Shown here piece after piece: positions 1 through 15,857 of a stretch of 15,857 nucleotides of DNA; position 1 is the stretch's first letter; each line of letters starts with the position of its first letter. Origin of the DNA: Promethearchaeia archaeon. GTDB lineage: Archaea > Asgardarchaeota > Lokiarchaeia > Sigyniarchaeales > SOKP01. A program made the translations under genes and the position numbers. The stretch is taken from assembly GCA_029856105.1 (NCBI GenBank), contig JAHQWH010000212.1, positions 1 through 15,857 on the forward strand, written 5' to 3'. A model generated the notes under the pieces. That model was not told the origin of the DNA. It saw only the letters and a list, made by a program, of their open reading frames with translations, and did no database searches.

Positions 1-350
1 TTTTTAAAATCCTTTAACCATTTTGACTTAATATTGTCAAAGGTGTTATGTCGTGTAAGATCAAAAACTAACAATGCACCAACACATCCTTGAAAGTACA
101 TAGACCTTATAACGTTATACTTTTCTTGACCTGCAAGATCCCACATTATTAATCGCACTTTGGCGTTAACATCGCCTATAGCAACATCCTTCCGAATTAT
201 ATTGGCTCCTAATGTAGGTTTGTAATCGTCTTCAAACGAGCTTTCTACAAATTGATTAATAAGTGAAGTTTTACCAACGGCGGAATCTCCTAGAATTGTG
301 ATTTTAAAAACATATTCCTTTGTTTCTGTGGATAATCCATCTGCTGGCAA
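1..350 (-). CDS. Rab-like (Ras superfamily) small GTPase, 5' part only (runs off the left edge)
   Basis: Missing from the ORF track; translated by hand: (M)PADGLSTETKEYVFKITILGDSAVGKTSLINQFVESSFEDDYKPTLGANIIRKDVAIGDVNAKVRLIMWDLAGQEKYNVIRSMYFQGCVGALLVFDLTRHNTFDNIKSKWLKDFK. G1 GDSAVGKTS, G2 PT, G3 WDLAGQE, Rab-family-like YFQGC and LVFDLT. Start TTG at 350 (alternative in-frame TTG at 359; stop immediately upstream). Confidence 0.95.
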   Translation of the reverse strand, partial: MPADGLSTETKEYVFKITILGDSAVGKTSLINQFVESSFEDDYKPTLGANIIRKDVAIGDVNAKVRLIMWDLAGQEKYNVIRSMYFQGCVGALLVFDLTRHNTFDNIKSKWLKDFK

Positions 351-440
351 TTTTACCAATTAATGATTTGTAATTTTTATTAAAGATATAAATACAACAA
401 AATTTATTTTGATTTTTGTTATATATAAGCTTTTGTTATT

Positions 441-1031
441 TTAGGATATAAATGTTTTCTCAATTTTTAATTTCAAAAAGAAAGAATTATGGTTTGGGTC
501 GCTAATGTTTTCTTTTATGGTTCCAAATGGAACCACGCAAAAACCCGAAGTTAAATTTTTTTCCAACGAATGAATTATAAAACCTTTGAATAAATCACAA
601 GAAACTCCAATTTCTGAACAAAATATACATTTATCAACTCGAACGACCACCAATTCAGGTGTGCTTTCCACAATTTTAACTTGCCAATTAGCAACAATCA
701 ATTGATTAATTTCGTTAATTATTTCTCCGAAATCTTTTCCAAAAGGAAACAAATAAAACGAGAACTTCCGTCCAATTTCGTACAATAATTTAGTAGAATC
801 GTACAACAAACAATTTTGAGCAGATATTATTTTTTTAAAAGAAAAAAAGTTAATTTCGCCATCGGGATCTACATCTCTTATATCTTTTAGTTCCAATAAT
901 TCGGCTTCTCTCAATATAGATTTCATCCCATCGTAATCTAAGTTATCTAAATAAGATTGCAATAACGCGGTTAGCACTCTATTTTTAACTAATCCTCGAT
1001 ATTCCCCTATTATTTCCGAATTATTTGCCAT
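441..1031 (-). CDS. V4R-domain protein (H-NOX/V4R/TRAPP-Bet3-related fold), divergent
   Basis: ATG start, 196 aa. Helical N-half with LYEIGRKF, then strand-strand-CIFC-x6-C-DLFKGFI, which resembles V4R proteins. The usual C-terminal E-x2-C-x7-C segment appears degenerate (ENISDPNHNSF). Confidence 0.6.
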   Translation of the reverse strand: MANNSEIIGEYRGLVKNRVLTALLQSYLDNLDYDGMKSILREAELLELKDIRDVDPDGEINFFSFKKIISAQNCLLYDSTKLLYEIGRKFSFYLFPFGKDFGEIINEINQLIVANWQVKIVESTPELVVVRVDKCIFCSEIGVSCDLFKGFIIHSLEKNLTSGFCVVPFGTIKENISDPNHNSFFLKLKIEKTFIS

Positions 1032-1408: not shown

Positions 1409-3148
1409 TTATTCATTCATTTCATAAGCGTCCTTTAATGAGTGAACTGTATTCCAAACTTTACCAAAACGCTCGGGATCGACATTAGGTTTCTTAATCA
1501 TCTTCAAACACCACTCCATCTGTTCAGGAGTAGTACTAGATTTATTATATAGATTTAATGCGTATTTGGAAAAGTCTCTCACTAGAAAATCAAATATTTG
1601 GTCTACAGTATCTTCACCAATATCATATATTTTAGCGTTTTCAACGATTAAATGGCTATATACAATAAGAGAAAAGATTTCGCCAATTCCTGAAAGCATG
1701 AAGTCCATATCTTTTTGTTGTTCGACACTAGGCATAGCCTTTACGCCCATAAGATTAAACATCTTAATTTGTTCCAAAAATATTTTGACATTGGGTAAAT
1801 CATATTGCTCAAACGCTGGTTTCCAATCATGAAAGCGAACCTTTCCCAATCCACGAGTTGGACCTTGATTAAAAAGGAATATATCGTCTTTAGCTTGATC
1901 TTGTCTTGGAATTTCCTCATATTTCTTATGATTCATAAAGAAGTTCATCATAAATTTCAAAATTAAGGCGATATTTACGTGAACGGTGCCTTCAAGTTTC
2001 GGTAAAGCACGAATATCCCTTGCAGCGCTTTCAAAAAACATGTCTTTTTCGAAACCTTTTGCCGCAATCACATCCCATAAAAGATTGATAACTTCCTCTC
2101 CTTGAGTAGTTGTTTTCATTTTCATAGCAGGAGCATAAAGTAGATATCGACGGTCTTTATTAGATGCTATTCTCATGTAATCAGCTGTTCTTAGTCCAAA
2201 TAATTTCATAGCGACTAAACGAGTATATGCATCAACAAAGTTTTGCTTAACATGCTGAAAATCAGTCACATACATATTATAGAGCCTTCGATTAGCTGCG
2301 TGATGAATTGCTTCATAAAATGCATGTGTACAAAGTCCTATTGAAGCCCATCCTAAATTATATTTCCCCACGTTAACCGTGTTAAGGGATGAGTTCCATG
2401 CCTCCTCTCCTTTGGAAAGGATATCTTCTTCGGTTATGGGATAATCGTGAAGTGCAAAATTTGCAACGTAATTTTGACTGTCGCAGATATTTTTTATTAA
2501 TTCATAGTTTTTGTGCTTATAATTTGCTATAAAGAAAACGTATTGTTCTTTATTTTTCATGTCATAGGGAGGGATATTGCCATCTTTATCAGCAAATTTA
2601 CCGAAGTTTGACACCATTGCTGCTTCGTTACCATTGCCAATATAATACTTTTCGCCATTAGCTTTATATGAACCATCTTCTTGAGGAGTTAATGCCATTT
2701 CCGTTCCGTAAATATCTGCTCCATGTGCTTTCTCAGATAGTCCGAACGCAAATATAGCGCCTTCCTCAATTAATTTCGCTGCTTTCTCCTTTGCTTTTTC
2801 GTTTTTACTCATCCAAATAGGTCCGAGTCCTAAAATTGAAACCTGCCAAGTATACCAATAACCTAATCCATAAAATGCAATAATTTCATTAAACTCACAT
2901 ATTCTCCACGTATCCCATCGATAATTCTCATCTTCTCCGTATTGAGACGGAGTTAATAGTTGGGCAAAAACCTTATTTTTTTTTTGAAATTCAAGGAAAT
3001 CAGAATACCATACTCGCTGGTGATCATCCTCCTTAATTTTCGCTTTCCCTTTGTTTTCGAAAAATTCTATGGTTTTAAGCATAATATCTTTTGACTTCGC
3101 GTCCGGATAATACCTTTTGTGTTGTTTCGGATTTAATAAAATATTCAT
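1409..3148 (-). CDS. Acyl-CoA dehydrogenase (long FadE-type subfamily)
   Basis: ACAD motifs FAFGLSEKAHGAD, ANGEKYYIGN, VNVGKYNLG, RRLYNMYVTDFQHV, LEGTVHVN (catalytic Glu position). ATG at 3148 preceded by AAGGTT is preferred over the track's GTG at 3163. Confidence 0.93.
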   Translation of the reverse strand: MNILLNPKQHKRYYPDAKSKDIMLKTIEFFENKGKAKIKEDDHQRVWYSDFLEFQKKNKVFAQLLTPSQYGEDENYRWDTWRICEFNEIIAFYGLGYWYTWQVSILGLGPIWMSKNEKAKEKAAKLIEEGAIFAFGLSEKAHGADIYGTEMALTPQEDGSYKANGEKYYIGNGNEAAMVSNFGKFADKDGNIPPYDMKNKEQYVFFIANYKHKNYELIKNICDSQNYVANFALHDYPITEEDILSKGEEAWNSSLNTVNVGKYNLGWASIGLCTHAFYEAIHHAANRRLYNMYVTDFQHVKQNFVDAYTRLVAMKLFGLRTADYMRIASNKDRRYLLYAPAMKMKTTTQGEEVINLLWDVIAAKGFEKDMFFESAARDIRALPKLEGTVHVNIALILKFMMNFFMNHKKYEEIPRQDQAKDDIFLFNQGPTRGLGKVRFHDWKPAFEQYDLPNVKIFLEQIKMFNLMGVKAMPSVEQQKDMDFMLSGIGEIFSLIVYSHLIVENAKIYDIGEDTVDQIFDFLVRDFSKYALNLYNKSSTTPEQMEWCLKMIKKPNVDPERFGKVWNTVHSLKDAYEMNE

Positions 3149-3336
3149 AATAACCTTTTTCACTTTATCTTATAGTTAAGAATTTAATTATGATTTAAAA
3201 TCACTATTCCAAAATTAACTTTCTTAATTATTATAAACAAAATATTTAGTTTAAAGCTAAAAGAAATACATATTTTAACCTTAAAATTTGAGTCAATCTT
3301 TTGTTGATCTTATATAGTAATTTATTAGTTCAGTTC

Positions 3337-3410
3337 AAATTAGAAAAAAATTAAAAAATGATATAAAAACATCTAAAAATTAAAGAAAAAAATTATTCTT
3401 TAACGGTTTC
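3337..3410. repeat. Direct repeat copy B: last codons of tes (ETVKE*) plus its T-tract terminator region
   Basis: See copy A. Includes the tes stop codon and the minus-strand TTTTTTT tracts. Confidence 0.85.
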
Positions 3411-5093
3411 TAACAATTCCTTTATTTCAGCTTGGATAACTTCTGGCTTTTTGGCAGCTTGATCTGAAATTACATTGCCCATTTCTATTCTTTCTCTATG
3501 TAGCGTATTCATTGCACAGAAGGGAATCTCTAATACTTTAGAATGGTCTTCAGGGTCAATCACACCATAGTGTACCAAGCATTTAGAAACTCTATCGAGG
3601 TCGAAGTTGTAAGCGTCTTGGAAATGCATGGCTGAGACCATTAGATTACGTGTGTGCAAGAAACTCGCTGCCGAGGCTAAATTCGGAGACACAATCAATC
3701 GTACAAAACCTTGATAAGTTTTGCTGGTTAAGAATTTCTCTGGTTGCTTCACAAACTTAACTGCGCCTGCAAAGAAATAAGCTTTCATCATCTGCCGATA
3801 TCCGAGATCGGTCATATCGTCAATGAATTTTCCAATAGTACTGGGAACAGCGCCAAGATCATTGAGGTTTATACCTTTTAATAATCCCGTAGGTTTTGGA
3901 ATTTCTTTTCCTTGGACCATGTCATAAACTTTATTTGACCATCTTACAAGCCCTTCCGAGTCAAAATAATGGTCGAGCGACTTCCATTGCTCTTTTTCGT
4001 CAATTATCATGATAGTTGCGAATCCACAATCTTTGTGGCTCGTCATACTAAACTCTTGCACGTTATCGAACCAAGCTAATAATCTAGTCATTTTTGCTGT
4101 AAAAGCTATTGGATAAAATCTTGGTATTGCATTATTTGTGTGTTTATTAATTGCTACCTTAAGATCTGAAGTTGTATATCTCAAATCCATTAATTCCTCA
4201 AAACTTATTCGACCACAGAGAGAGACTGGTTGGAATACTATTCCAGAAACCACATCGCTATTATCTCTTGCGAAGTCTAAAATGTTTCCTACTTCGTGAT
4301 CGTTAACGCCTTTAGCTACTACCGGAACTAGCATTACACCAAAGTACCCTATTTTTCTACAATTTTCGATTACTCTCTTTTTTAAAGGCCATAGGTTAAC
4401 TCCCCGTATCTTTTTCCAGACTTCTGGGTCGTCAGTTGCATCAAACTGTAAATAGATGGCGTCCATCCCGGCATCTTTACATTGTTGTAAGAAATCGATA
4501 GATTTTGCAAATCTGATGCCGTTAGTTGTGACCATAACTTCAACAAAACCAAGTTCTTTCCCTTTACGAATTATATCTGGAAGATCGTCTCGAATAGTGG
4601 GTTCTCCACCAGATATTTGTAACATAACTGCACCCACGGGTTTCATTGATCTGAAGTGTTCCATAATTAGAACAAGTTGATCAAATGTGGGCTCTACAAC
4701 GTATCCTTTCGCGCTTGCGTTTGCAAAACAAATCGGACACGTTAAATTACAACGATTAGTAATGTCAATAAGGCAAATGTTAGGAGCGCTCTGATGATTT
4801 TCGCAAAGTCCGCAATCGTATGGGCATCCATTCACAGTCTTTTTTATTCCTGAGCTTGTATATTCAGGTTTAGTAGAATTATTTATAGTAGACCCGATTT
4901 CGTCTGTAAAAGTCTCACCCCATTTGTATTCTTCTGGATCAATTGAGAGTTTATCTTTAAAGTCACCGTGTTCTGCACAATTTTTTCTCATCATGACCCA
5001 GTTAGTTTCGGGATCGACATAGATTTCCGCTGGAATTGTTTGTAAGCATTCTGGACATATGCTTGTAGTTCGTCTTATAATTTCTTCTGTCAT
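3393..5093 (-). CDS. tes: Radical SAM tetraether lipid synthase (Tes / GDGT-MAS, MJ0619 family)
   Basis: N-terminal rubredoxin-like SICPEC...KNCAEHG, auxiliary-cluster motif GCPYDCGLCENH, radical SAM CNLTCPIC, SGGEPT, HKDCG, and C-terminal MHFQDAYNFDLDRVSKCLVHY...IPFC, all characteristic of this family. ATG at 5093 is preferred over TTG 5102. Confidence 0.88.
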   Translation of the reverse strand: MTEEIIRRTTSICPECLQTIPAEIYVDPETNWVMMRKNCAEHGDFKDKLSIDPEEYKWGETFTDEIGSTINNSTKPEYTSSGIKKTVNGCPYDCGLCENHQSAPNICLIDITNRCNLTCPICFANASAKGYVVEPTFDQLVLIMEHFRSMKPVGAVMLQISGGEPTIRDDLPDIIRKGKELGFVEVMVTTNGIRFAKSIDFLQQCKDAGMDAIYLQFDATDDPEVWKKIRGVNLWPLKKRVIENCRKIGYFGVMLVPVVAKGVNDHEVGNILDFARDNSDVVSGIVFQPVSLCGRISFEELMDLRYTTSDLKVAINKHTNNAIPRFYPIAFTAKMTRLLAWFDNVQEFSMTSHKDCGFATIMIIDEKEQWKSLDHYFDSEGLVRWSNKVYDMVQGKEIPKPTGLLKGINLNDLGAVPSTIGKFIDDMTDLGYRQMMKAYFFAGAVKFVKQPEKFLTSKTYQGFVRLIVSPNLASAASFLHTRNLMVSAMHFQDAYNFDLDRVSKCLVHYGVIDPEDHSKVLEIPFCAMNTLHRERIEMGNVISDQAAKKPEVIQAEIKELLETVKE

Positions 5094-5371
5094 AAGTATC
5101 AATTTAAGTTATTTTTTTAATAAAATTATGATTAAATAATAATTTATTTGATTAGAAAAAACGTTATTGTATTTATTTGTTTTCGTACCTTTCGTATTAT
5201 TAATAGTATTATCGATATTATTTATTATTAAAAAAGAGTTAATAAATTATTAAAATCCAACAATTCTTTTAATTCAAGTCTTATCTTCGCCTAAAGTTAA
5301 GATACTTTAAGATAAATGTTTGTCTTAAAACCTCACAGAGCAAATTATAATCGGATAAAATCGATATAAAA

Positions 5372-5492: not shown

Positions 5493-5821
5493 GGTTTTAT
5501 ACAAATTCCCTATTTTATTTAACTTTAATTTATATTACTTTGTTTATTAATTCTTATCTTCTATGATTTTTATATGTTTTAAACATATATATTTTTATCT
5601 TAAGTATTTAATATCGTTAGTGATATTTAAAAGAATTGTTGATATTTTGAAACTTTTGTCTAGTAATTATTAACAGTTTGATTAGTTTTACAACAATTAC
5701 AATGTTATTCTCATTGATTTGATTTATTAAAAAATTTTTAAATATGGTTTAATTATTACATACAAATACAAAAATAGATTGATTTTTTCTAAACATAAAA
5801 TAAAAAACAAAGAGATTCTTG

Positions 5822-6217
5822 ATGGAAGCAGAGAGCAACGAAATAAATAAATCGAGAGAAAAGGCGGAGCCTGACCTAAAGTTAGAGGTTTGGACGTTAA
5901 TATTTGTCGTTGTAGGTTTTATCGCATCGTGGTTTAATATGATCTTTATTTTGGAAGCTCCTCGAGCGATAGAAGTTCTAGCGTTTTTATCAATCATACT
6001 TACGACAATAATTCCTGGGGTGATTATAGCCATAATTAATAGATATTGGGGTTACGGTTATTTAATCGGGTTCGCGAGCGCGGGTATTCCATTTTTGATT
6101 TTCGTTGATCTCTTTATTGGTGGCTACTCATTTGCTACTACGATTTTTATTTTCATAATTTTATGGTTAATATTTTGGAAAACATGGCGCAGTTTAAGTT
6201 CAATTAAAACGGGATAA
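5822..6217 (+). CDS. Small integral membrane protein (~4 TM helices), unknown function
   Basis: Charged N-tail followed by four hydrophobic segments (VWTLIFVVVGFIASWFNMIFIL; VLAFLSIILTTIIPGVIIAII; WGYGYLIGFASAGIPFLIFVDLFI; FATTIFIFIILWLIFW) and a basic C-tail. ATG at 5822. Confidence 0.8.
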   Translation: MEAESNEINKSREKAEPDLKLEVWTLIFVVVGFIASWFNMIFILEAPRAIEVLAFLSIILTTIIPGVIIAIINRYWGYGYLIGFASAGIPFLIFVDLFIGGYSFATTIFIFIILWLIFWKTWRSLSSIKTG

Positions 6218-6930: not shown

Positions 6931-7014
6931 ACACTGAGATAATATTTACGTTTTAAATCAAGATTGACTTTATGTTTTAATAGGAAAATTCTTGAGATCA
7001 TTAGTCTTATTAAA

Positions 7015-7518
7015 ATGTCGTACAACTGGAATAATAGAGGTATAGAAAAAACATATGGATTTAAATTAGAAAAACTTAATTCAAATGAAAATCGGTTTTA
7101 TGCTTTATATTTTTTAGACAATTTAACTGGTTCTTTACTATTAAGTAATAAATATACCAATAAGACAAGATTTTTATCTCATGGGGATTTAATTAGTGGT
7201 TTTTTAAACGCTTTAAACCAATTTATAGTTGAACTCAAACCCGATTCATTAGATGACGAAATTCAAGAAATCAACTTTAAAGAAACCCGAATATTGTACG
7301 AAAGGAAAGGTCGATTATCTGTTATTGCGATTACAAAGAAAACAAATTTGCAAGTAGAAAGAGTGATATTACATCAGATTATGGAGGATTTCTATAATAA
7401 ATTTGAATATAGTATAAATCATTTTAATGGAAATATTGATCCATCAATTTTAAGATATAAAAAAAGGTTAGAAAATATGAATTTTAATTCGTTATTTAAA
7501 TTTGATGTTCATTTATGA
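7015..7518 (+). CDS. Longin-like domain protein (Asgard eukaryotic-signature type)
   Basis: Longin-type order: two strands (ALYFLD-NLTGSLLL), helix DLISGFLNALNQFIVE, three strands (IQEINF, RILYER, LSVIAIT), helix VILHQIMEDFYNKF, then FNGN plus helix. ATG 7015 is preferred over TTG 6964. Confidence 0.7.
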   Translation: MSYNWNNRGIEKTYGFKLEKLNSNENRFYALYFLDNLTGSLLLSNKYTNKTRFLSHGDLISGFLNALNQFIVELKPDSLDDEIQEINFKETRILYERKGRLSVIAITKKTNLQVERVILHQIMEDFYNKFEYSINHFNGNIDPSILRYKKRLENMNFNSLFKFDVHL

Positions 7519-7549: not shown

Positions 7550-9031
7550 TTAATTAAGATTTTCATCCTTTTTCTTTCGTTCGATTTTTTCAATTTCGCT
7601 TTCAATTTTAGAGCTAATACCTTTTATATCGGGTTTAATCTCCATTCTTTCTAAATCTCGTTCTCTTTGTTTTTCTCTAAAATACGATTTTTCTTCAATG
7701 ATTTTTTCTATGGCTTCGCTAGATCTCTCAAAGTTAGGTTTAATGTTCATTCTTTCTTGATCTATTTCTTTTTGTTTTTCAATTCTAAACGCTTTCTCAT
7801 CAATTGAAGATTTTATAGCTTGACTTACTTTTTCCAAATCAGGTTTAAGTTCCATCCTTCTGAGGTCGTCTTCGCGTTGTTGTTCACGCAAAAAGGCTTT
7901 TTCTTGTATTGATTTACTAATTATTTCCGAAGTTGTCTCAAAATCAGGTTTTAATTCTTTTTGTTTATCGTAAATTTCGCGCCGTTTATCCATCCTAAAC
8001 GCTTTTTCTGCCACGGTTTTACTTATTGCTTCTCCCGTTTTCATAAAGTCTGGTTTTAGCTCCATTCTTTTAAAATCTCGTTCTCTTTGTTTTTCTCGTA
8101 AAAACGCTTTTTCACCTATTGAATTAGAGATCGTTTCTCCTGTTTTTTCTATGTCAGGTTTTAATTCTAACCGACGAGAATCGCTCTCTTTCTTTTTTTC
8201 AATCATAAAAGCTTTTTCGTCAACAGACGCTTTAATAGCTTCGCTTTTTTCAATAATTTTAGGTTGTAAATTTGACATTCTCCGATCCGTTTCGCGTTGT
8301 TTATCTCTTCTAAACGCTTTTTCTGCCACGGTTTTACTTATTGCTTCTCCCGTTTTCATAAGGTCTGGTTTTAGCTCCATTCTTTTAAAATCTCGTTCTC
8401 TTTGTTTTTCTCGTAAAAACGCTTTTTCACCTATTGAATTAGAGATCGTTTCTCCTGTTTTTTCTATGTCAGGTTTTAATTCTAACCGACGAGAATCGCT
8501 CTCTTTCTTTTTTTCAATCATAAAAGCTTTTTCATTAATACTTTTACTAATTGCCTCCCTTGTGCTTTCCATATCAGGTTTTATTTTTAATCGTTGGATA
8601 TCATTTTCCCTTCTCTTTTCAATTAAAAACGCTTTATCATCGATGATTTTACTTATTACTTCACTAATACCTTTAAAGTCAGGCTTCAGGTCTGTCCTTT
8701 TAAGATCTACTTCTCTTTGTTTTTCCCTCATAAATGCTTTTTCTCCGATGGTTTTTTCTATTGCTTCACCAGTTTGTTCAATGTCAGGTTTTAGTTCCAT
8801 TCTTTCTAAATCTCGTTCTCTTTGTTTTTCTCTCATGAAACTTTTCTCGGATATCAAGGCAGAAATCAGTTCTTTACTCTCTTCAAAAGCATCTTTCCGT
8901 TCTACCTCGAAACTTTTTAAGTACTGTTCCCTTTCTTCCTTTTCTTTTTTATATAAATCATCAACAATCTTCTTTTGGGTTTCAATCTCTTCGGATGTTA
9001 AAGGCTTTTCATTCTCTTCCAATTTTCTCAC
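7550..9031 (-). CDS. Highly charged tandem-repeat protein (12 x 35 aa), unknown function
   Basis: 493 aa, GTG start. Residues 60-479 are 12 gap-free units of consensus I-x-E-K-A-F-x-R-E-K-Q-R-E-x-D-x-x-R-M-E-L-K-P-D-x-E-K-T-x-E-A-I-S-K-S. No TM segment or signal peptide. Confidence 0.9.
   Translation of the reverse strand: MRKLEENEKPLTSEEIETQKKIVDDLYKKEKEEREQYLKSFEVERKDAFEESKELISALISEKSFMREKQRERDLERMELKPDIEQTGEAIEKTIGEKAFMREKQREVDLKRTDLKPDFKGISEVISKIIDDKAFLIEKRRENDIQRLKIKPDMESTREAISKSINEKAFMIEKKKESDSRRLELKPDIEKTGETISNSIGEKAFLREKQRERDFKRMELKPDLMKTGEAISKTVAEKAFRRDKQRETDRRMSNLQPKIIEKSEAIKASVDEKAFMIEKKKESDSRRLELKPDIEKTGETISNSIGEKAFLREKQRERDFKRMELKPDFMKTGEAISKTVAEKAFRMDKRREIYDKQKELKPDFETTSEIISKSIQEKAFLREQQREDDLRRMELKPDLEKVSQAIKSSIDEKAFRIEKQKEIDQERMNIKPNFERSSEAIEKIIEEKSYFREKQRERDLERMEIKPDIKGISSKIESEIEKIERKKKDENLN
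7995..8533. repeat. Near-identical 224-bp intragenic direct repeat (7995-8218 and 8310-8533)
   Basis: Offset 315 bp (3 x 105). One mismatch found (a8047/g8362; F vs L in KPD[F/L]MKTGE). Confidence 0.92.
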
Positions 9032-9192
9032 TTGAGGAATTGATTAATAGGTTTTTTAAAATATAATATCAAAATTTGTATTTAATAATTTACTTATCCA
9101 AGAATTAATAGATTTCAATATTTTAAATCTTGGAATGACAAATTTTCTTAACTACTAAAAGAATAGGAAAAGGAAAACAAATATATTTTCGA

Positions 9193-9945
9193 TTAAATAG
9201 AAGATTTTATTGGAATTGGTTCAAACGATTCGTCTGACATCGAATCCATTAGACTAATCATTGTAAGTTTCATCGATAGCATTTCCATAATTTCCGTTGA
9301 TAATTTTTGATAAAATTCTGACCCCTCTGTAATATTGAATTCGGATGCTAAGGTATCGTATCTGTTTTTCAAGTTCGCTTTTAAACTATCTTGATTATCT
9401 AAATTTATAATTTGAGTTTTTAACCAGTTGTCAATTGCGTCCTTTATTTCAATCTCAATTCCGTCTTTAAGAGAATAAGAAATCTCCACTTCTTGAAATT
9501 TATTAGCTCTATCAAGGTATTTTTGGTCTTGATACATTGGTTTAAGAAACAATCCTAAATTTATAATTAGTGGCTGGATTTGAAGCCTATCCAAGGAATC
9601 TGAAAAAAGTCTCAATATTTGCTTTTTCTGCGTTAATTGCGCGTAATCTACATAATCTTGAATAAATCTCATCAATGCGTTTTTTATTAACAGTTCTTGA
9701 AAATCATTTACAGATTCGGTTCTTAAATCTAAAGTAGATTCAATGCAATTATAAACGGAATTCATAAACGGTTTAATATTTTTAAACATCGAGAAATAAT
9801 AGATAAACTGGACAATCTTACCTAATATTTCTATTTTAAGGTTGTCTGAATCAAAATTATTCTCAATTTTCTGATCCAAATTAAATTTCTCATCAGATAT
9901 CGATAAGAACTGTTTTATTTCAAAATATTTTGATCCCAAATCCAT
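9193..9945 (-). CDS. Hypothetical protein (250 aa, predicted mostly helical)
   Basis: Long ATG-started ORF in AT-rich DNA with native composition. No motif recognised. Confidence 0.8.
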   Translation of the reverse strand: MDLGSKYFEIKQFLSISDEKFNLDQKIENNFDSDNLKIEILGKIVQFIYYFSMFKNIKPFMNSVYNCIESTLDLRTESVNDFQELLIKNALMRFIQDYVDYAQLTQKKQILRLFSDSLDRLQIQPLIINLGLFLKPMYQDQKYLDRANKFQEVEISYSLKDGIEIEIKDAIDNWLKTQIINLDNQDSLKANLKNRYDTLASEFNITEGSEFYQKLSTEIMEMLSMKLTMISLMDSMSDESFEPIPIKSSI

Positions 9946-11552: not shown

Positions 11553-12140
11553 ATGGTAGAAGAAATTACAAAGAATTTTGAAAAAGCAATGAAAAAAGGC
11601 TTCATAAGCGCGCTTATATTGTTAATTCTCGAGAAGAACCCTTCATACGGTTATAAAATTAGCAAAGATATGACGTCCCGAACTCTCGGAATATGGTCCC
11701 CTCCCGCATCTACAATGTATACTGTGCTTAAGGAAATGACTAAAAATGGCTTAATTCAATACACAGAGCAACAAGAAGAAGGAAGAACTAGAAAAATTTA
11801 CGAAGTAACAAAAAAAGGAGAAGAAACACTAAAATTAATGGTTGAAAAGCAACAAATAATTAATGAATCAATAGAAACACTAATAGCGGCAACAGTAGGC
11901 TCAGATAAGAAATTATCAGGACATTTCTTTCCGATGCAAGGTCCATTTAACTTCTTTTTCGAAAAACTTGAAGAAAAATCCGAAGAGGAGAAATTAAAAT
12001 TATTAGAGTTTCACAAATTGAAGCTTTCGCAAAAGATTAAACGATTAAACGAACAATATCAGAAAATTGAGGAAGTAATCTCAGAATTAAAAAATAAAGC
12101 GATTGATAAAAACTCAGAGGAGGAGAAAAAAGTAGTATGA
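11553..12140 (+). CDS. PadR-family winged-helix transcriptional regulator with C-terminal coiled coil
   Basis: KKGFISALILLIL...SYGYKI...STMYTVLKEM..GLI...GRTRKIYEVTKKGEETL. Overlaps the next gene by ATGA. Confidence 0.93.
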   Translation: MVEEITKNFEKAMKKGFISALILLILEKNPSYGYKISKDMTSRTLGIWSPPASTMYTVLKEMTKNGLIQYTEQQEEGRTRKIYEVTKKGEETLKLMVEKQQIINESIETLIAATVGSDKKLSGHFFPMQGPFNFFFEKLEEKSEEEKLKLLEFHKLKLSQKIKRLNEQYQKIEEVISELKNKAIDKNSEEEKKVV

Positions 12141-13924
12141 ATACATTTAAAATGATTTTAAAATATTGGATGAAATCTAAGAAGGATTTCATTCTCGAAA
12201 TAGTCTATTTATTAATGTCTACGATGTTTTTGGTAATCGTCCCAATATTAATAGGAAGAATGATTGGTGGTTTAGATCCGAATCTTTCAGTGCTTTCTAA
12301 TGCTAGTGACCTAATTATTTCATTTAGCTTGATTCTTATGTTTGGTTTTCTAGCTTTTGTATTGGAAAGAGCCGCGCGGTTAAGAGGGGCTGAGGTTTCC
12401 TCAAGAGCGGTTTATTATCTTCGCACGGATATCAACAACGCCATTTCTCGACAATCTTTTTCTTATTTTGATAAAACTGAGACGGGTCAATTAATTTCAC
12501 GAGCTACAAGTGATGTGGAAGAAAGCGAACAAATCTTTGGTATGGGTTTGAATATGGGATTTAGATCCATTCTCCAATTAGGAGGTGTCATTATTGGGTT
12601 CATTCTTTTTAGCATAGAATTATCTTGGTTATTGTCAATAGCCATTGGAAGTTCTCTTTTATTATCGTATTATCTTGCTAAAAAGTTAAAACCAGTATTT
12701 TTGGAGACTCGAAATAGCTTTGGGGAATTAACTAATACAATTAGAGAAAATATAGTAGGCGCTCAAGTGGTACGGTTGTTTAACACTCAAGGTAAAGAAC
12801 GTCAAAAATTTTCTAAAAACAATGAGCGGTTTTACAAAGCTAGCGTTCATTCAGTAAAATTGAATTCACTCTATATGCCAAGCATATTCGTAATAATTGG
12901 CTTCATGACCGTATTCACATTATTAGCTGGTGGAATCTGGGTAATAGAAGGGGTAATGACGTTAGCTACCTTGATTACTTTACAATCGTTTATCGCGACT
13001 CTTGGATTTCCTTTGGTTATGTTAGGACAAATTATGTTGATGTACATTCAAGCCGACGCGGCTTTAACTCGCGTGAGAGATGTTTTAGAATCAACTCCAG
13101 AAGTTAAAGATTTACCAAACGCAACCCCGATTGAACATATGAAAGGCGATGTAGAATTTGAAAACGTTTCTTTTGGTTACACTTCTGACCATAGGATTTT
13201 AAAAAATGTGTCATTTAATATTGCTTCTGGAAAAAAATTAGCAATCCTCGGAACAACAGGTTCTGGAAAATCTACAATTATCAATTTAATTCCTCGGTTT
13301 TATGATGTAAATGAGGGGGTAATCAAAATTGATCAGGAAGATATCCGTAAGTATCACCTACAAGATTTAAGGAAAAATGTTGGGATTGTATCTCAAGAAA
13401 CATTTTTGTTCAATAAAAGCATTGCTGATAATATTTCGTATGGCAAAGAAAACGCAACTATGGAAGAAATAATTGAAGCGGCCAAAATTGCCAATTTGCA
13501 TGATTTTATCGTTTCTTTACCAAAAGAATACGATACTATTGTAGGTGAACGTGGTACAAGGCTGTCAGGGGGTCAAAAACAACGTCTTTCTATTGCTCGT
13601 GCGTTAATTATAAAGCCAAAAATTCTAATTTTTGACGATTCTACCAGTTCTGTAGATGTAGAAACCGAGTTTGAAATTCAAAAAGGATTAGAAGAAATCA
13701 CTAAGGGAACTACAACTTTCATTATTACTCAACGAATTTCGACTATTCGTAATGCTGATAAGATATTAGTTTTAGATAAAGGAAGAGTAATAGGTTTTGG
13801 TGTTCACAATGATTTAATTAAAACTAACGTGTTATATAGACAAATTTATGAAACATTATATTACAAACAAAAGTCATTACCAGATTTGAAACAAAATAAT
13901 AGTAAAATAGGTGATCTTCCATGA
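12137..13924 (+). CDS. ABC exporter subunit (TMD-NBD fusion, MdlA/TM287-like, degenerate site)
   Basis: Six-TM domain, Walker A GTTGSGKS, signature LSGGQKQR, Walker B ILIFDD (D instead of catalytic E) and H-switch ITQR (Q instead of H), the pattern of the degenerate half of heterodimeric exporters. Confidence 0.95.
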   Translation: MNTFKMILKYWMKSKKDFILEIVYLLMSTMFLVIVPILIGRMIGGLDPNLSVLSNASDLIISFSLILMFGFLAFVLERAARLRGAEVSSRAVYYLRTDINNAISRQSFSYFDKTETGQLISRATSDVEESEQIFGMGLNMGFRSILQLGGVIIGFILFSIELSWLLSIAIGSSLLLSYYLAKKLKPVFLETRNSFGELTNTIRENIVGAQVVRLFNTQGKERQKFSKNNERFYKASVHSVKLNSLYMPSIFVIIGFMTVFTLLAGGIWVIEGVMTLATLITLQSFIATLGFPLVMLGQIMLMYIQADAALTRVRDVLESTPEVKDLPNATPIEHMKGDVEFENVSFGYTSDHRILKNVSFNIASGKKLAILGTTGSGKSTIINLIPRFYDVNEGVIKIDQEDIRKYHLQDLRKNVGIVSQETFLFNKSIADNISYGKENATMEEIIEAAKIANLHDFIVSLPKEYDTIVGERGTRLSGGQKQRLSIARALIIKPKILIFDDSTSSVDVETEFEIQKGLEEITKGTTTFIITQRISTIRNADKILVLDKGRVIGFGVHNDLIKTNVLYRQIYETLYYKQKSLPDLKQNNSKIGDLP

Positions 13925-15857
13925 GTAATGCAGAAGAAAATAAAGAGAGAAAAGAAGAAAAAAAAATCAATCAGCCGTCTTTAAGTTTTCATCGGCGTCC
14001 CTCGTTTGGAGAAGGTAAACCAAACTTAGAACATCCTAGCAAATTTCTGTGGAAATGGATGCTTTCATATCTAAAATCGTTTAAATGGAAATTTGTGCTG
14101 TATTCTATATTTCTCTTATTAGGGACCATGATTTTAACCATAAATCCGTTACTTTCTGCGACTATAATAGATAATGGGATTTTAGCAAGGGATCCATATT
14201 ACGTAATAATCATGAGTGTAGTGTTTTTAAGCCTACTCGTCCTCATGGCAATCACAACTTATATTTCTCAATACGGAATGGGAAAAATATCGCAAAAAGT
14301 TACGTACGAAGTAAGAAATGATCTCTTTTTTAAATTGCAAGACATGTCTCTTAATTATTTTGATCAACATCCATCAGGAGATATAATCTCAATTACAACT
14401 AACGACGTTAATCAACTAAACTTACTAGTAGGCGGGCAATTTGTACAGATAATAACTAATATTGTATCCATTGGTATTACTATATTAATTATGTTCTTGC
14501 TCAACATCTATTTAGCCTTAATCAGCTTGGTAATAATTCCAATATTTTTTGTTATGGCAATTTTTATTCAAAAAATTATAATGGGAGTTTTTAAGAAGGC
14601 TAGAGAAACGATTGGTCAAGTTACAACTTCGATTCAGGAGAATATTGCAGGAGCGAAGATAGTAAAAGCATATGGACAAGAAAAAAGAGCGTCTTCCGAA
14701 TTTGATCAAGCAAATACAGCTAATTATAAGATAATGGTTAAGATTAGAAGAATTATGTCTACAATTTTCCCTCTATTCTCTTTAATAGTTACGGTTCTAA
14801 CAGTGATTATACTATTACTTGGAGGTTTTATCGCAATTGGAAAAATTAATATTTTTGGTATAACCGTTTCGGTTGGAGTTCTAGTTGCTTTTATTTCGTT
14901 ACTTTCTCAATTTTTCCGCCCATTCATGATGTTATTACAAATGCAACAAATTCTAGGAAGCGCTTTGGCAGCTTCAGATCGAATCTTATCTGTATTAGAA
15001 GAAAGCGTAGAAATACCTGAGCCAAGAAGTGCGAAAATATTTTCCGAACCTAAAGGAAATATTGAGTTTACTAACGTTAGTTTTGGCTACGTTTTAGATA
15101 ATAATAAGGAAAAACAATCACCTGAAATTACATCTGAATCTCAAGCACCTGACGAACGAAAACTCATGATGCAAAATCCAATGATTAAAAAAGCAATAGA
15201 AATGATGAAAACTTTCCCGGAACCATATTCCTCTTTCATGCTTAAAAACAGCATGTTTATGCCTCAAAACGTTCGACAGAAATTGTTCATGAGCTTAATG
15301 AGAGTTAAACCCGAGGATGCTCCTAAGATAATTGACGAAATTTTAGACGAATACCATTTTGCCGTTCCAAATACAGATTTAGCAGAAAACCATCCTGAAT
15401 ATGATACATCCTTTAAAATTAAAGATAGCGATCTAAAGAAAGGCATACCTTCAAAAGATAAATCGTCAATGGGGGAATTAATTCCTCCCAAAATGATCGA
15501 AATGATGGTTAAAAACTTAGAAAAAATGCTTCGCTCAAAATCAGGTTTTAAACAACCAACTAGTGGTGGAATGGGAGGAGACAGTCAAGGACTAATGGGT
15601 GGTGGCGCAATGCAGATGTCTCCTCAAGCAATCCTCGAAACACTTGCCAGTATATCAATTCCTCCGGAGATCTCAAATAAGATTCCAAAAGTAGTAAAAG
15701 ATGCTATAGAAGAAAAAAAGATATTAATTAAACACCAACAATCTACAGGTTACGTATTAAAAGATTTAAACTTAAAAGTCCCTCCTGGTGCTACTCTGGC
15801 AATTGCTGGTGAGACTGGCGCAGGAAAGACAACGTTAGTAAAGCTTCTCGCTCGATT
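13921..15857 (+). CDS. ABC exporter second subunit (TMD-NBD, MdlB/TM288-like), partial at right edge, with large insertion at the start of the NBD
   Basis: Missing from the ORF track; ATG 13921 overlaps the upstream stop (ATGA). TMD motifs RNDLFFKLQDMSLNYFDQHPSGDIISITTNDV and IQENIAGAKIVKAY, IEFTNVSFGY at 15061-15090, and Walker A GETGAGKTT near 15808-15834, all in the same frame. Confidence 0.93.
   Translation, partial: MSNAEENKERKEEKKINQPSLSFHRRPSFGEGKPNLEHPSKFLWKWMLSYLKSFKWKFVLYSIFLLLGTMILTINPLLSATIIDNGILARDPYYVIIMSVVFLSLLVLMAITTYISQYGMGKISQKVTYEVRNDLFFKLQDMSLNYFDQHPSGDIISITTNDVNQLNLLVGGQFVQIITNIVSIGITILIMFLLNIYLALISLVIIPIFFVMAIFIQKIIMGVFKKARETIGQVTTSIQENIAGAKIVKAYGQEKRASSEFDQANTANYKIMVKIRRIMSTIFPLFSLIVTVLTVIILLLGGFIAIGKINIFGITVSVGVLVAFISLLSQFFRPFMMLLQMQQILGSALAASDRILSVLEESVEIPEPRSAKIFSEPKGNIEFTNVSFGYVLDNNKEKQSPEITSESQAPDERKLMMQNPMIKKAIEMMKTFPEPYSSFMLKNSMFMPQNVRQKLFMSLMRVKPEDAPKIIDEILDEYHFAVPNTDLAENHPEYDTSFKIKDSDLKKGIPSKDKSSMGELIPPKMIEMMVKNLEKMLRSKSGFKQPTSGGMGGDSQGLMGGGAMQMSPQAILETLASISIPPEISNKIPKVVKDAIEEKKILIKHQQSTGYVLKDLNLKVPPGATLAIAGETGAGKTTLVKLLAR

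Follow-up and report, generated by a model that had tools for sequence, protein, structure and literature searches.

A Lokiarchaeial protein of twelve equal-length helical repeats and its candidate periodic partner

The repeat gene and its units

The DNA analyzed here, the whole 15,857 nucleotides (nt) of contig JAHQWH010000212.1 from a Promethearchaeia archaeon (Lokiarchaeia; Sigyniarchaeales), hereafter the window, carries on its minus strand a gene whose product consists mainly of twelve consecutive units of exactly 35 amino acids (aa). We describe this repeat gene, its relatives, and its neighbors, and we propose, tentatively, that the uniform unit length may keep the protein in register with a periodic partner, for which the Lokiactin filament is the first candidate. 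The frame entered as 7550-9031 in the list of open reading frames (ORFs) is free of stop codons upon translation. Its true start is the TTG codon at 9022 and not the GTG at 9031: seven orthologs (L017-19, L023, L028, L043, and L044) have ATG at this codon, and in two more (L040 and L042) it is exactly here that the frame opens. The 490-aa product (Table 1) starts with a head of 53 aa and continues with 12 gap-free units of 35 aa each; the last 17 aa form a tail, which measures 14 to 19 aa in most orthologs and 39 aa in L043 and L044. The ratio of nonsynonymous to synonymous substitution rates (dN/dS) of the repeat gene against its orthologs is 0.11 to 0.32, with dS values up to and beyond saturation, and the ORF is therefore a real gene under purifying selection. 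Charged residues account for 49% of the protein, which contains 122 K+R and 119 D+E and is thus net neutral, with an isoelectric point (pI) of 8.4. It contains no W, C, or H and no hydrophobic segment.

TABLE 1. Features of the window and conserved positions of the repeat unit (positions in nt of the window)
Feature	Position	Strand	Description	Basis
Repeat gene	7550..9022	-	Complete coding sequence, 490 aa; TTG start 9022-9020, TAA stop 7552-7550	ORF list, translation, orthologs
Head	8864..9022	-	Residues 1-53; MEENEKPLT.EEIE.QKKIV..LYKKEKEERE.YLK..E.ERK.AFEESK..IS	Conserved in all relatives
Twelve-unit array	7604..8863	-	Residues 54-473; consensus SKSI.EKAF.(I/R)EKQRE.D..RMELKPDIEKTGEAI	
Unit 4	8444-8548	-	Equals the match from the unit-profile genome scan	
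Higher-order repeat	7997..8743	-	315 nt (3 units), units 4-5-6 versus 7-8-9	Tandem Repeats Finder
Tail	7553..7603	-	Residues 474-490, charged; KGIS.KIESEIEKIE.KKKDE	Translation
Candidate archaeal promoter	9048..9066	-	A/T-rich TATA-like stretch, ~30-40 nt upstream of the TTG start	Read from sequence
Unit position K7			Conserved, 99%	351 units
Unit position I35			Conserved, 98%	351 units
Unit position F9			Conserved, 97% (Y, 2%)	351 units
Unit position P26			Conserved, 95%	351 units
Unit position K13			Conserved, 89%	351 units
Unit position E16			Conserved, 88%	351 units
Unit position K25			Conserved, 85%	351 units
Unit positions E6 and A8			Conserved, 84% each	351 units
250-aa neighbor	9193..9945	-	Upstream, codirectional; no known family	Synteny
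184-aa neighbor	6964..7518	+	Downstream, convergent; ~167 aa from the probable start at residue 18	Synteny, all six genera
Radical-SAM enzyme	3393-5102	-	HMPTM-type N-terminal zinc ribbon (PF23545 + PF04055)	
Small membrane protein	5819-6217	+	132 aa, 3-4 predicted membrane helices	Conserved in all genera
94-aa ORF	5749-6033	-	Overlaps 5819-6217 on the opposite strand; probably not a gene	Weak matches
Acyl-CoA dehydrogenase-like protein	1409-3163	-	584 aa; only middle and C-terminal domains recognized; long extra C-terminal part	
196-aa ORF	441-1031	-	Adjoins the GTPase gene; no known family	
Small GTPase	3-359	-	Ras/Roc family; cut by the window end	
PadR-family regulator and two ABC exporter genes	11553-15855	+	Exporters with fused transmembrane and nucleotide-binding domains, overlapping by 4 nt	

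A preliminary description of this DNA, made from the letters alone, had proposed twelve gap-free 35-aa repeats at 7595-8854. The repeats are confirmed: an EK[AS][FY] anchor recurs twelve times, at residues 62+35n, with zero indels, and each of the 12 units scores 56 to 74 bits with a hidden Markov model (HMM) of the unit; the array is the same one, although the register proposed there is shifted by 3 residues relative to 7604-8863. Tandem Repeats Finder reports a 105-nt period together with a 315-nt higher-order period (score, 945; 82 to 86% matches). Among the 12 units of the window protein, K7, E16, P26, and I35 are invariant, and E6, F9, K13, D18, and K25 are nearly so. One proline per unit had also been pointed out. 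P26 is indeed present in 95% of the units of the window's genus, but it is dispensable in sister genera: in g18 and g22, about half of the units have L, A, or T in its place, with the period still at 35.

The period is kept with few exceptions. In 33 orthologs (351 units), the spacing between units is 35 aa in 317 of 318 intervals, the exception being L028, with one spacing of 59 aa. In four further genera of the window's family (f1), 37 of 38 intervals measure 35 aa; a single 32-aa unit occurs in G228, whose array also contains near-identical units. Altogether, the 35-aa period was found across six genera. Differences in array length always involve whole units: 18 of the 33 distinct ortholog sequences have 12 units (489 to 492 aa), and the remaining ones have 11, 10, 9, or 6, some of these low counts perhaps reflecting assembly collapse. 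Outside f1, a homolog from the sister family f2 (L009; G042:C17) has 295 aa and six units of exactly 37 aa, all of them Pro-less, and metagenome relatives include 37-aa forms without Pro as well; units in family f4 are irregular.

Comparison of the units with one another indicates that the array is old and that its modules are alike in function. The likeness is 0.66 between orthologous units versus 0.48 between paralogous ones, and the array therefore predates the window's genus. Fifteen of the 35 positions are kept alike in both comparisons (0.70 to 0.82 for orthologs versus 0.71 to 0.77 for paralogs), while nine variable positions mostly drift; since the conserved positions match equally well in orthologs and paralogs, the modules are functionally equivalent. 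In the window protein, unit 4 is 89% identical to unit 7, unit 5 is 97% identical to unit 8, and unit 6 is 54% identical to unit 9. Across species, units 5 and 8 show an average likeness of 0.73 within species versus 0.64 between species, which points to local gene conversion inside an older 3-unit super-repeat.

Predicted fold, relatives, and origin of the array

AlphaFold2 modeling from the single sequence gave a predicted local distance difference test (pLDDT) score of 70 and a predicted template modeling score (pTM) of 0.19; with a 30-sequence ortholog alignment, these values were 63 and 0.18. Both models consist of twelve helices of ~31 residues, with a 4-residue break at K-P-D-x between one helix and the next and no tertiary packing predicted with confidence, and a Foldseek search of the PDB with the alignment-based model returned 0 matches. 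The apolar seam of each helix is one residue wide (I28, I35, I4, I11, and M22), with F9 and L24 on the opposite side, and is interrupted by the conserved D18; the hydrophobic moment of the helix is ~0.6 on the Kyte-Doolittle scale, and strong hydrophobics make up 26% of its residues. The repeat protein is thus predicted to be cytoplasmic and elongated, without a compact autonomous fold. The cytoplasmic location had been anticipated in the preliminary description and is supported, and the protein is predicted to be all-helical; likewise, AlphaFold modeling of the protein alone produced no self-contained solenoid or bundle, an outcome in keeping with the filament binder imagined there.

Four established helical architectures were considered and rejected. 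The earlier equation of 35 aa with five heptads does not hold as a sign of a canonical coiled coil: the best heptad register reaches an a/d occupancy of 0.44 (counting I, L, M, F, V, W, and Y), i.e., only 44% of the a/d positions are hydrophobic, and K7, Q14, and R21 fall at a/d. As for an ER/K single alpha-helix, 59 opposite-charge pairs are found at i,i+4, versus 59.3±6.1 in 500 shuffles. With this a/d occupancy and no enrichment of salt-bridge pairs, both the canonical coiled coil and the ER/K helix are rejected. A TPR/PPR hairpin solenoid, with an antiparallel helix pair in every 34- to 35-aa unit and a compact stacked superhelix, is contradicted by one predicted helix per unit, a pTM of 0.18 to 0.19, and the lack of a TPR or PPR match in Pfam. 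Finally, a spectrin repeat would be a three-helix bundle of ~106 aa; a 105-aa super-repeat of 3 units is present, yet AlphaFold2 shows no bundle and neither Pfam nor Foldseek gave a match.

When 400 Asgard genomes were scanned with the unit profile, the repeat gene turned up in 108 of the 134 genomes of f1 (10 of 13 genera), in 1 of 14 genomes of f2, and in 0 of the ~250 other Asgard genomes. In a first draw of 60 relatives, it was present in 33 of the 36 genomes of the window's genus. It was not found in the nine genomes searched from the f1 genera g23 and g29 or in closed genomes of the sister family. The closest public record, at 91% identity, comes from the Promethearchaeota (Loki) metagenome-assembled genome Loki_b31. 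A profile search of 1.84 billion protein representatives yielded 43 matches, mostly short metagenome fragments of the repeat family; this exhaustive search also hit TPR proteins, by chance and through a 14-residue "LKPD" stretch alone. A search for homologs of near-equal length returned nothing, and a search among shorter proteins returned contig-end fragments only. Pfam, NCBIfam, PADLOC, PDB sequences, and the ESM Atlas held no relative. A match to Entericidin (PF08085; E, 8e-7) proved spurious, as it sums 12-residue matches across the repeat, and matches to PDB sequences were at chance level (a designed helical bundle, E of 0.019; p85 iSH2, E of >0.1). We found no description of the repeat protein in a literature search. 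It constitutes an undescribed family restricted to one Lokiarchaeial lineage; the preliminary description had already suspected a new repeat family.

Some metagenome relatives differ in architecture. In P0002 and P0011, a C-terminal extension carries one or two copies of K-W-(L/F)-x-Q-(L/F)-(K/N)-x-x-R-K, which are absent from the window protein. P0010, a 199-aa fragment from an 822-nt contig, has the head and two units running directly into TPR repeats, which reflects either a gene fusion that exists in nature or an assembly chimera.

The head of the protein has relatives in other Asgard lineages. In two further Asgard families, a profile of the head and the first unit detected a single small ORF in each genome (5/5 and 6/6 genomes). 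One of the encoded 65-aa proteins (P0058) is listed in nr as "hypothetical protein [Candidatus Freyarchaeota archaeon]." The 65-aa proteins align with head residues 1-59 over 59 columns (hhalign, 97.3%; E, 1.9e-11) and end in H-I-G-E-K-A, exactly where the I-x-E-K-A of the first unit starts. In Freya-type genomes (L100 and L101), the small gene lies ~530 nt upstream of an ortholog of the radical S-adenosylmethionine (SAM) gene of the window (46 to 48% identity), with the same order and strand as at the repeat gene. The homologous head and the radical-SAM neighbor are common to both, whereas the 65-aa protein lacks any repeats. Because the heads are homologous and the radical-SAM linkage, order, and strand are the same, the repeat gene is the positional ortholog of the 65-aa gene, and its product is a tiny Asgard protein that gained a C-terminal array. 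The idea that the whole 35-aa unit derived from the tail of the 65-aa protein finds no statistical support, as only 6 residues align, and not significantly (E, 0.039). The radical-SAM linkage with a head-related gene survives between Asgard families.

The gene neighborhood

In six f1 genera, the genes follow in the order DUF362, 250-aa gene, and repeat gene, which converges on the 184-aa gene, followed by a 158-aa gene, the small membrane protein gene, and the radical-SAM gene. The 250-aa neighbor adjoins the repeat gene in four of the five other f1 genera sampled and is missing in several species of the window's genus; in G195, which alone was sampled from g21, neither the DUF362 gene nor the 250-aa gene was detected on the upstream side. 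Searches with the 250-, 184-, and 158-aa neighbors found no known family: the 250-aa protein had no Pfam, NCBIfam, PADLOC, or PDB match, and the 184-aa protein had no Pfam match. PADLOC assigned no defense family to the repeat gene or its neighbors. The nearest named Atlas cluster of the 184-aa ORF is that of a Roadblock/LAMTOR2 domain-containing protein (score, 0.89), with Fuz_longin_1 in 22% of its members; this neighbor is possibly Roadblock/longin-like, which we regard as a lead only.

Farther out, the small GTPase gene and the adjoining 196-aa ORF are adjacent in most far-reaching loci of the window's genus, usually downstream of the radical-SAM gene. At the other end of the window, the regulator and exporter genes resemble an operon for a heterodimeric efflux pump controlled by the PadR regulator.

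A proposed periodic partner and competing explanations

The 53-residue head, derived from the 65-residue Asgard protein, is followed by twelve equivalent modules, each predicted to be a helix plus a linker. We propose that this elongated protein depends on a partner with a repeating structure and would lie along it so that each module meets one repeat, the Lokiactin filament being the best candidate. A role as a multivalent side-binder or scaffold in register with such a partner, Lokiactin coming first, is the reading that we favor, as a possibility and with some reserve. In-register multivalent binding is suggested by the equivalence of the modules, the uniform period, the conserved polar and aromatic residues, and the lack of an autonomous fold. 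From the uniform period, we infer that the protein keeps step with a polymer. The preliminary description had drawn the same conclusion from the strict unit length; the period is uniform across genera, as that argument demands, but neighboring genes are indel-poor too, and L028 and G228 break the rule.

The dimensions of the unit fit those of the actin filament. In situ, the Lokiactin filament has a rise of 27.9 Å, which corresponds to 55.8 Å per strand subunit (PMC9834061). A unit would measure 35 × 1.5 Å = 52.5 Å if fully helical, or 46.5 Å plus a 4-residue linker, and the Pro-less 37-aa unit of G042 would measure 55.5 Å; one unit therefore spans ~52 to 56 Å, and the length compatibility with the 55.8-Å Lokiactin strand repeat (PMC9834061) agrees with the earlier suggestion of an actin-type polymer in this respect. 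Two Lokiactin genes and three further genes of the actin family are found in the window's genome, and a near-invariant Lokiactin is present in every f1 genus sampled. In the unit-profile search, by which the preliminary description had hoped to learn how the repeats are spread relative to actin, they were found only in Asgard genomes, and all f1 genera sampled carry Lokiactin. The main Asgard actin regulators that have been named are only profilins and gelsolins (PMC13716822). That the polymer would be Lokiactin is inferred only from the agreement in length, the way [S/D][E/D]xx[F/Y] is spaced, and the want of a known Asgard filament side-binder. The more specific proposal of an independently evolved, nebulin- or tropomyosin-like Lokiactin side-binder, with one 35-residue helix per subunit and ~66 nm covered by 12 units, is rather unlikely in this precise form.

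The analogy with nebulin deserves closer examination, as it was drawn in the preliminary description. Nebulin modules are 31 to 38 aa long, mostly 35, with Pro at position 5 and S-D-x-x-Y-K at positions 18 to 23, in which Tyr22 is invariant, and each module, which contacts three actins, folds as a helix-kink-helix followed by a loop (bioRxiv 10.1101/2021.10.06.463400). Like members of this family (PF00880; nebulin, nebulette, LASP, and N-RAP), the repeat protein is composed of mostly helical tandem modules of ~35 aa with Pro near the helix start, and an acidic-x-x-aromatic motif has the same internal spacing in both ([S/G/D]-[E/D]-K-A-F here and S-D-x-x-Y there). Both lack an autonomous fold, both show a higher-order super-repeat, and the module length of both matches one subunit along an actin-type strand. 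The nebulin-like spacing reported earlier is thus real within the motif, but it does not extend beyond it: Pro lies 14 residues before the motif, one residue farther than in nebulin, the aromatic residue is Phe and not the invariant Tyr22, and the next residue is R, L, or M in place of the conserved Lys23. In addition, each unit here is a single 31-residue helix with a 4-residue linker, as opposed to a helix-kink-helix with a long loop; the super-repeat comprises 3 units versus 7; there are 7 to 12 modules versus ~180; and the array arose within one archaeal order. The Pfam Nebulin model was not matched at E≤10 by the whole protein or by any of the 12 single units, and no relationship to nebulin is detectable. 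From these comparisons, the repeat protein does not belong to the nebulin family and would at most act in a similar way.

A prokaryotic counterpart of such an arrangement is GvpC of gas vesicles, whose equal-length helical repeats of 33 aa are laid across the GvpA ribs of a periodic lattice. GvpC differs from the repeat protein in that the two have no sequence similarity; GvpA (PF00741) was unmatched in the window's genome (G000), but control genomes were likewise unmatched in that search.

Several observations weigh against register with Lokiactin. Lokiactin is 95 to 100% identical across the family and 95 to 99% identical in g23 and g29, where the repeat gene was not found; since actin is near-identical in these genera, Lokiactin does not need the repeat protein. 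The number of units varies from 7 to 12 between genera and from 9 to 12 within the window's genus, which argues against a fixed ruler length, and the period itself differs between lineages (35, 37, or irregular). Conserved residues ring the helix without forming a single face (conservation moment, 0.11 to 0.14). Nothing in the neighborhood of the repeat gene points to the cytoskeleton, and nebulin is strongly basic, while the repeat protein is net neutral. The length constraint, moreover, is weaker than it looks. In neighboring genes of the same species set, 6 gap runs occur in 1038 columns, predicting ~2.4 indels in the 420-column array, where 0 are seen; the array's indel count is thus only mildly below the prediction, which is mild evidence within the genus. 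The persistence of the period across genera at 39 to 48% identity and after the loss of Pro adds weight to the constraint.

The partner could also be the protein itself. As a self-assembling structural protein, it would zip helices of adjacent molecules or adjacent units into sheets, bundles, or fibers through the I28-I35-I4-I11-M22 seam and the F9/L24 face, and the period would serve to align modules among themselves instead of along a foreign polymer. Such assembly would make use of two conserved apolar stripes on opposite sides of the helix, with conserved residues all around, and of the equivalence of all units; a period uniform within a protein yet differing between lineages, 35 versus 37, is what would be expected if the protein had no partner but itself. 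We nevertheless consider self-assembly doubtful, since AlphaFold2 does not pack the helices of one chain against each other with any confidence (pTM, 0.18), strong hydrophobics make up 26% of the helix, the best heptad register is 0.44, and half of the residues are charged.

Comparably doubtful is the idea that the protein serves as a flexible charged spacer, a tether, or a hydrophilin-like protectant, its period being a footprint of tandem duplication kept because indels are rare in helices. The ~2.4 indels predicted from neighboring genes make zero indels weak evidence of constraint, the arrays visibly expand, contract, and convert (9 to 12 units in the genus, the 315-nt conversion, and the near-identical G228 units), and the protein is very hydrophilic and without a fold. 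A mere spacer, however, would hardly keep fifteen positions strongly conserved across units, including the polar K7 (99%), K13 (89%), and E16 (88%), nor would it be expected to remain under purifying selection (dN/dS, ~0.12) or to retain its period across genera at 39 to 48% identity and after the loss of Pro.

An association with nucleic acid, chromatin, or the ribosome, in which each helical unit would contact the phosphate backbone or a histone fiber, appears improbable. The K/R-rich composition, the invariant basic positions (K7, R/K15, and K25), and the pI of 9 to 9.5 of some orthologs are offset by a net charge of about zero (122 basic versus 119 acidic residues), by the absence of a PPR, TALE, Pumilio, or HEAT match and the presence of one helix per unit instead of a hairpin solenoid, and by a step of 52 to 56 Å that equals ~1.5 DNA turns and would fall out of register.

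At slightly lower probability still, the protein might coat membrane surfaces with Pro-punctuated amphipathic helices, shaping or stabilizing protrusion membranes in the manner of apolipoprotein A-I or perilipin. Apolipoprotein A-I is indeed similar in having single helices separated by Pro and no compact fold alone, the hydrophobic moment of the repeat helix is ~0.6, and a conserved small polytopic membrane protein is encoded nearby (5819-6217). Yet apolipoprotein A-I has an 11/22-mer period and a broad apolar lipid face, whereas the repeat protein has a 35-residue period, no 11-mer periodicity (best hendecad register, 0.41), and a seam one residue wide that is broken by D18; 49% of its residues are charged, and its Pro is dispensable in sister genera.

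Last, a true but very divergent nebulin-repeat homolog, i.e., a new eukaryotic signature protein, is highly improbable: the 35-aa modules with Pro 14 residues before [S/G/D][E/D]KA[F/Y] recall P5...S18-D19-x-x-Y22, but the Nebulin HMM is unmatched at E≤10 and the PDB holds no sequence match, the array originated from a repeat-free 65-aa protein within a single Lokiarchaeial order, and the search of other Asgard families revealed no repeats apart from one match in the sister family f2, so that with repeats near-confined to one Lokiarchaeial family a vertical link to eukaryotes is implausible.

If the repeat protein does bind along Lokiactin, it would stabilize, space, or measure filaments in cell protrusions, and it would become the first known example, outside eukaryotes, of a filament side-binder or ruler, one that grew from an ancestral protein of 65 residues. 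No protein binding along Asgard actin filaments is described in the current literature (PMC13716822). The reach of the finding is limited in that the repeat gene is confined to one uncultured Lokiarchaeial family. Within it, a selected, family-wide protein with modules of a length suited to the Lokiactin strand repeat makes a concrete candidate side-binder, and it could show how these archaea stabilize or size their protrusion filaments. Should the partner prove different, the protein would still be an example of a long, equal-length single-helix repeat protein and of an array born from a tiny protein.

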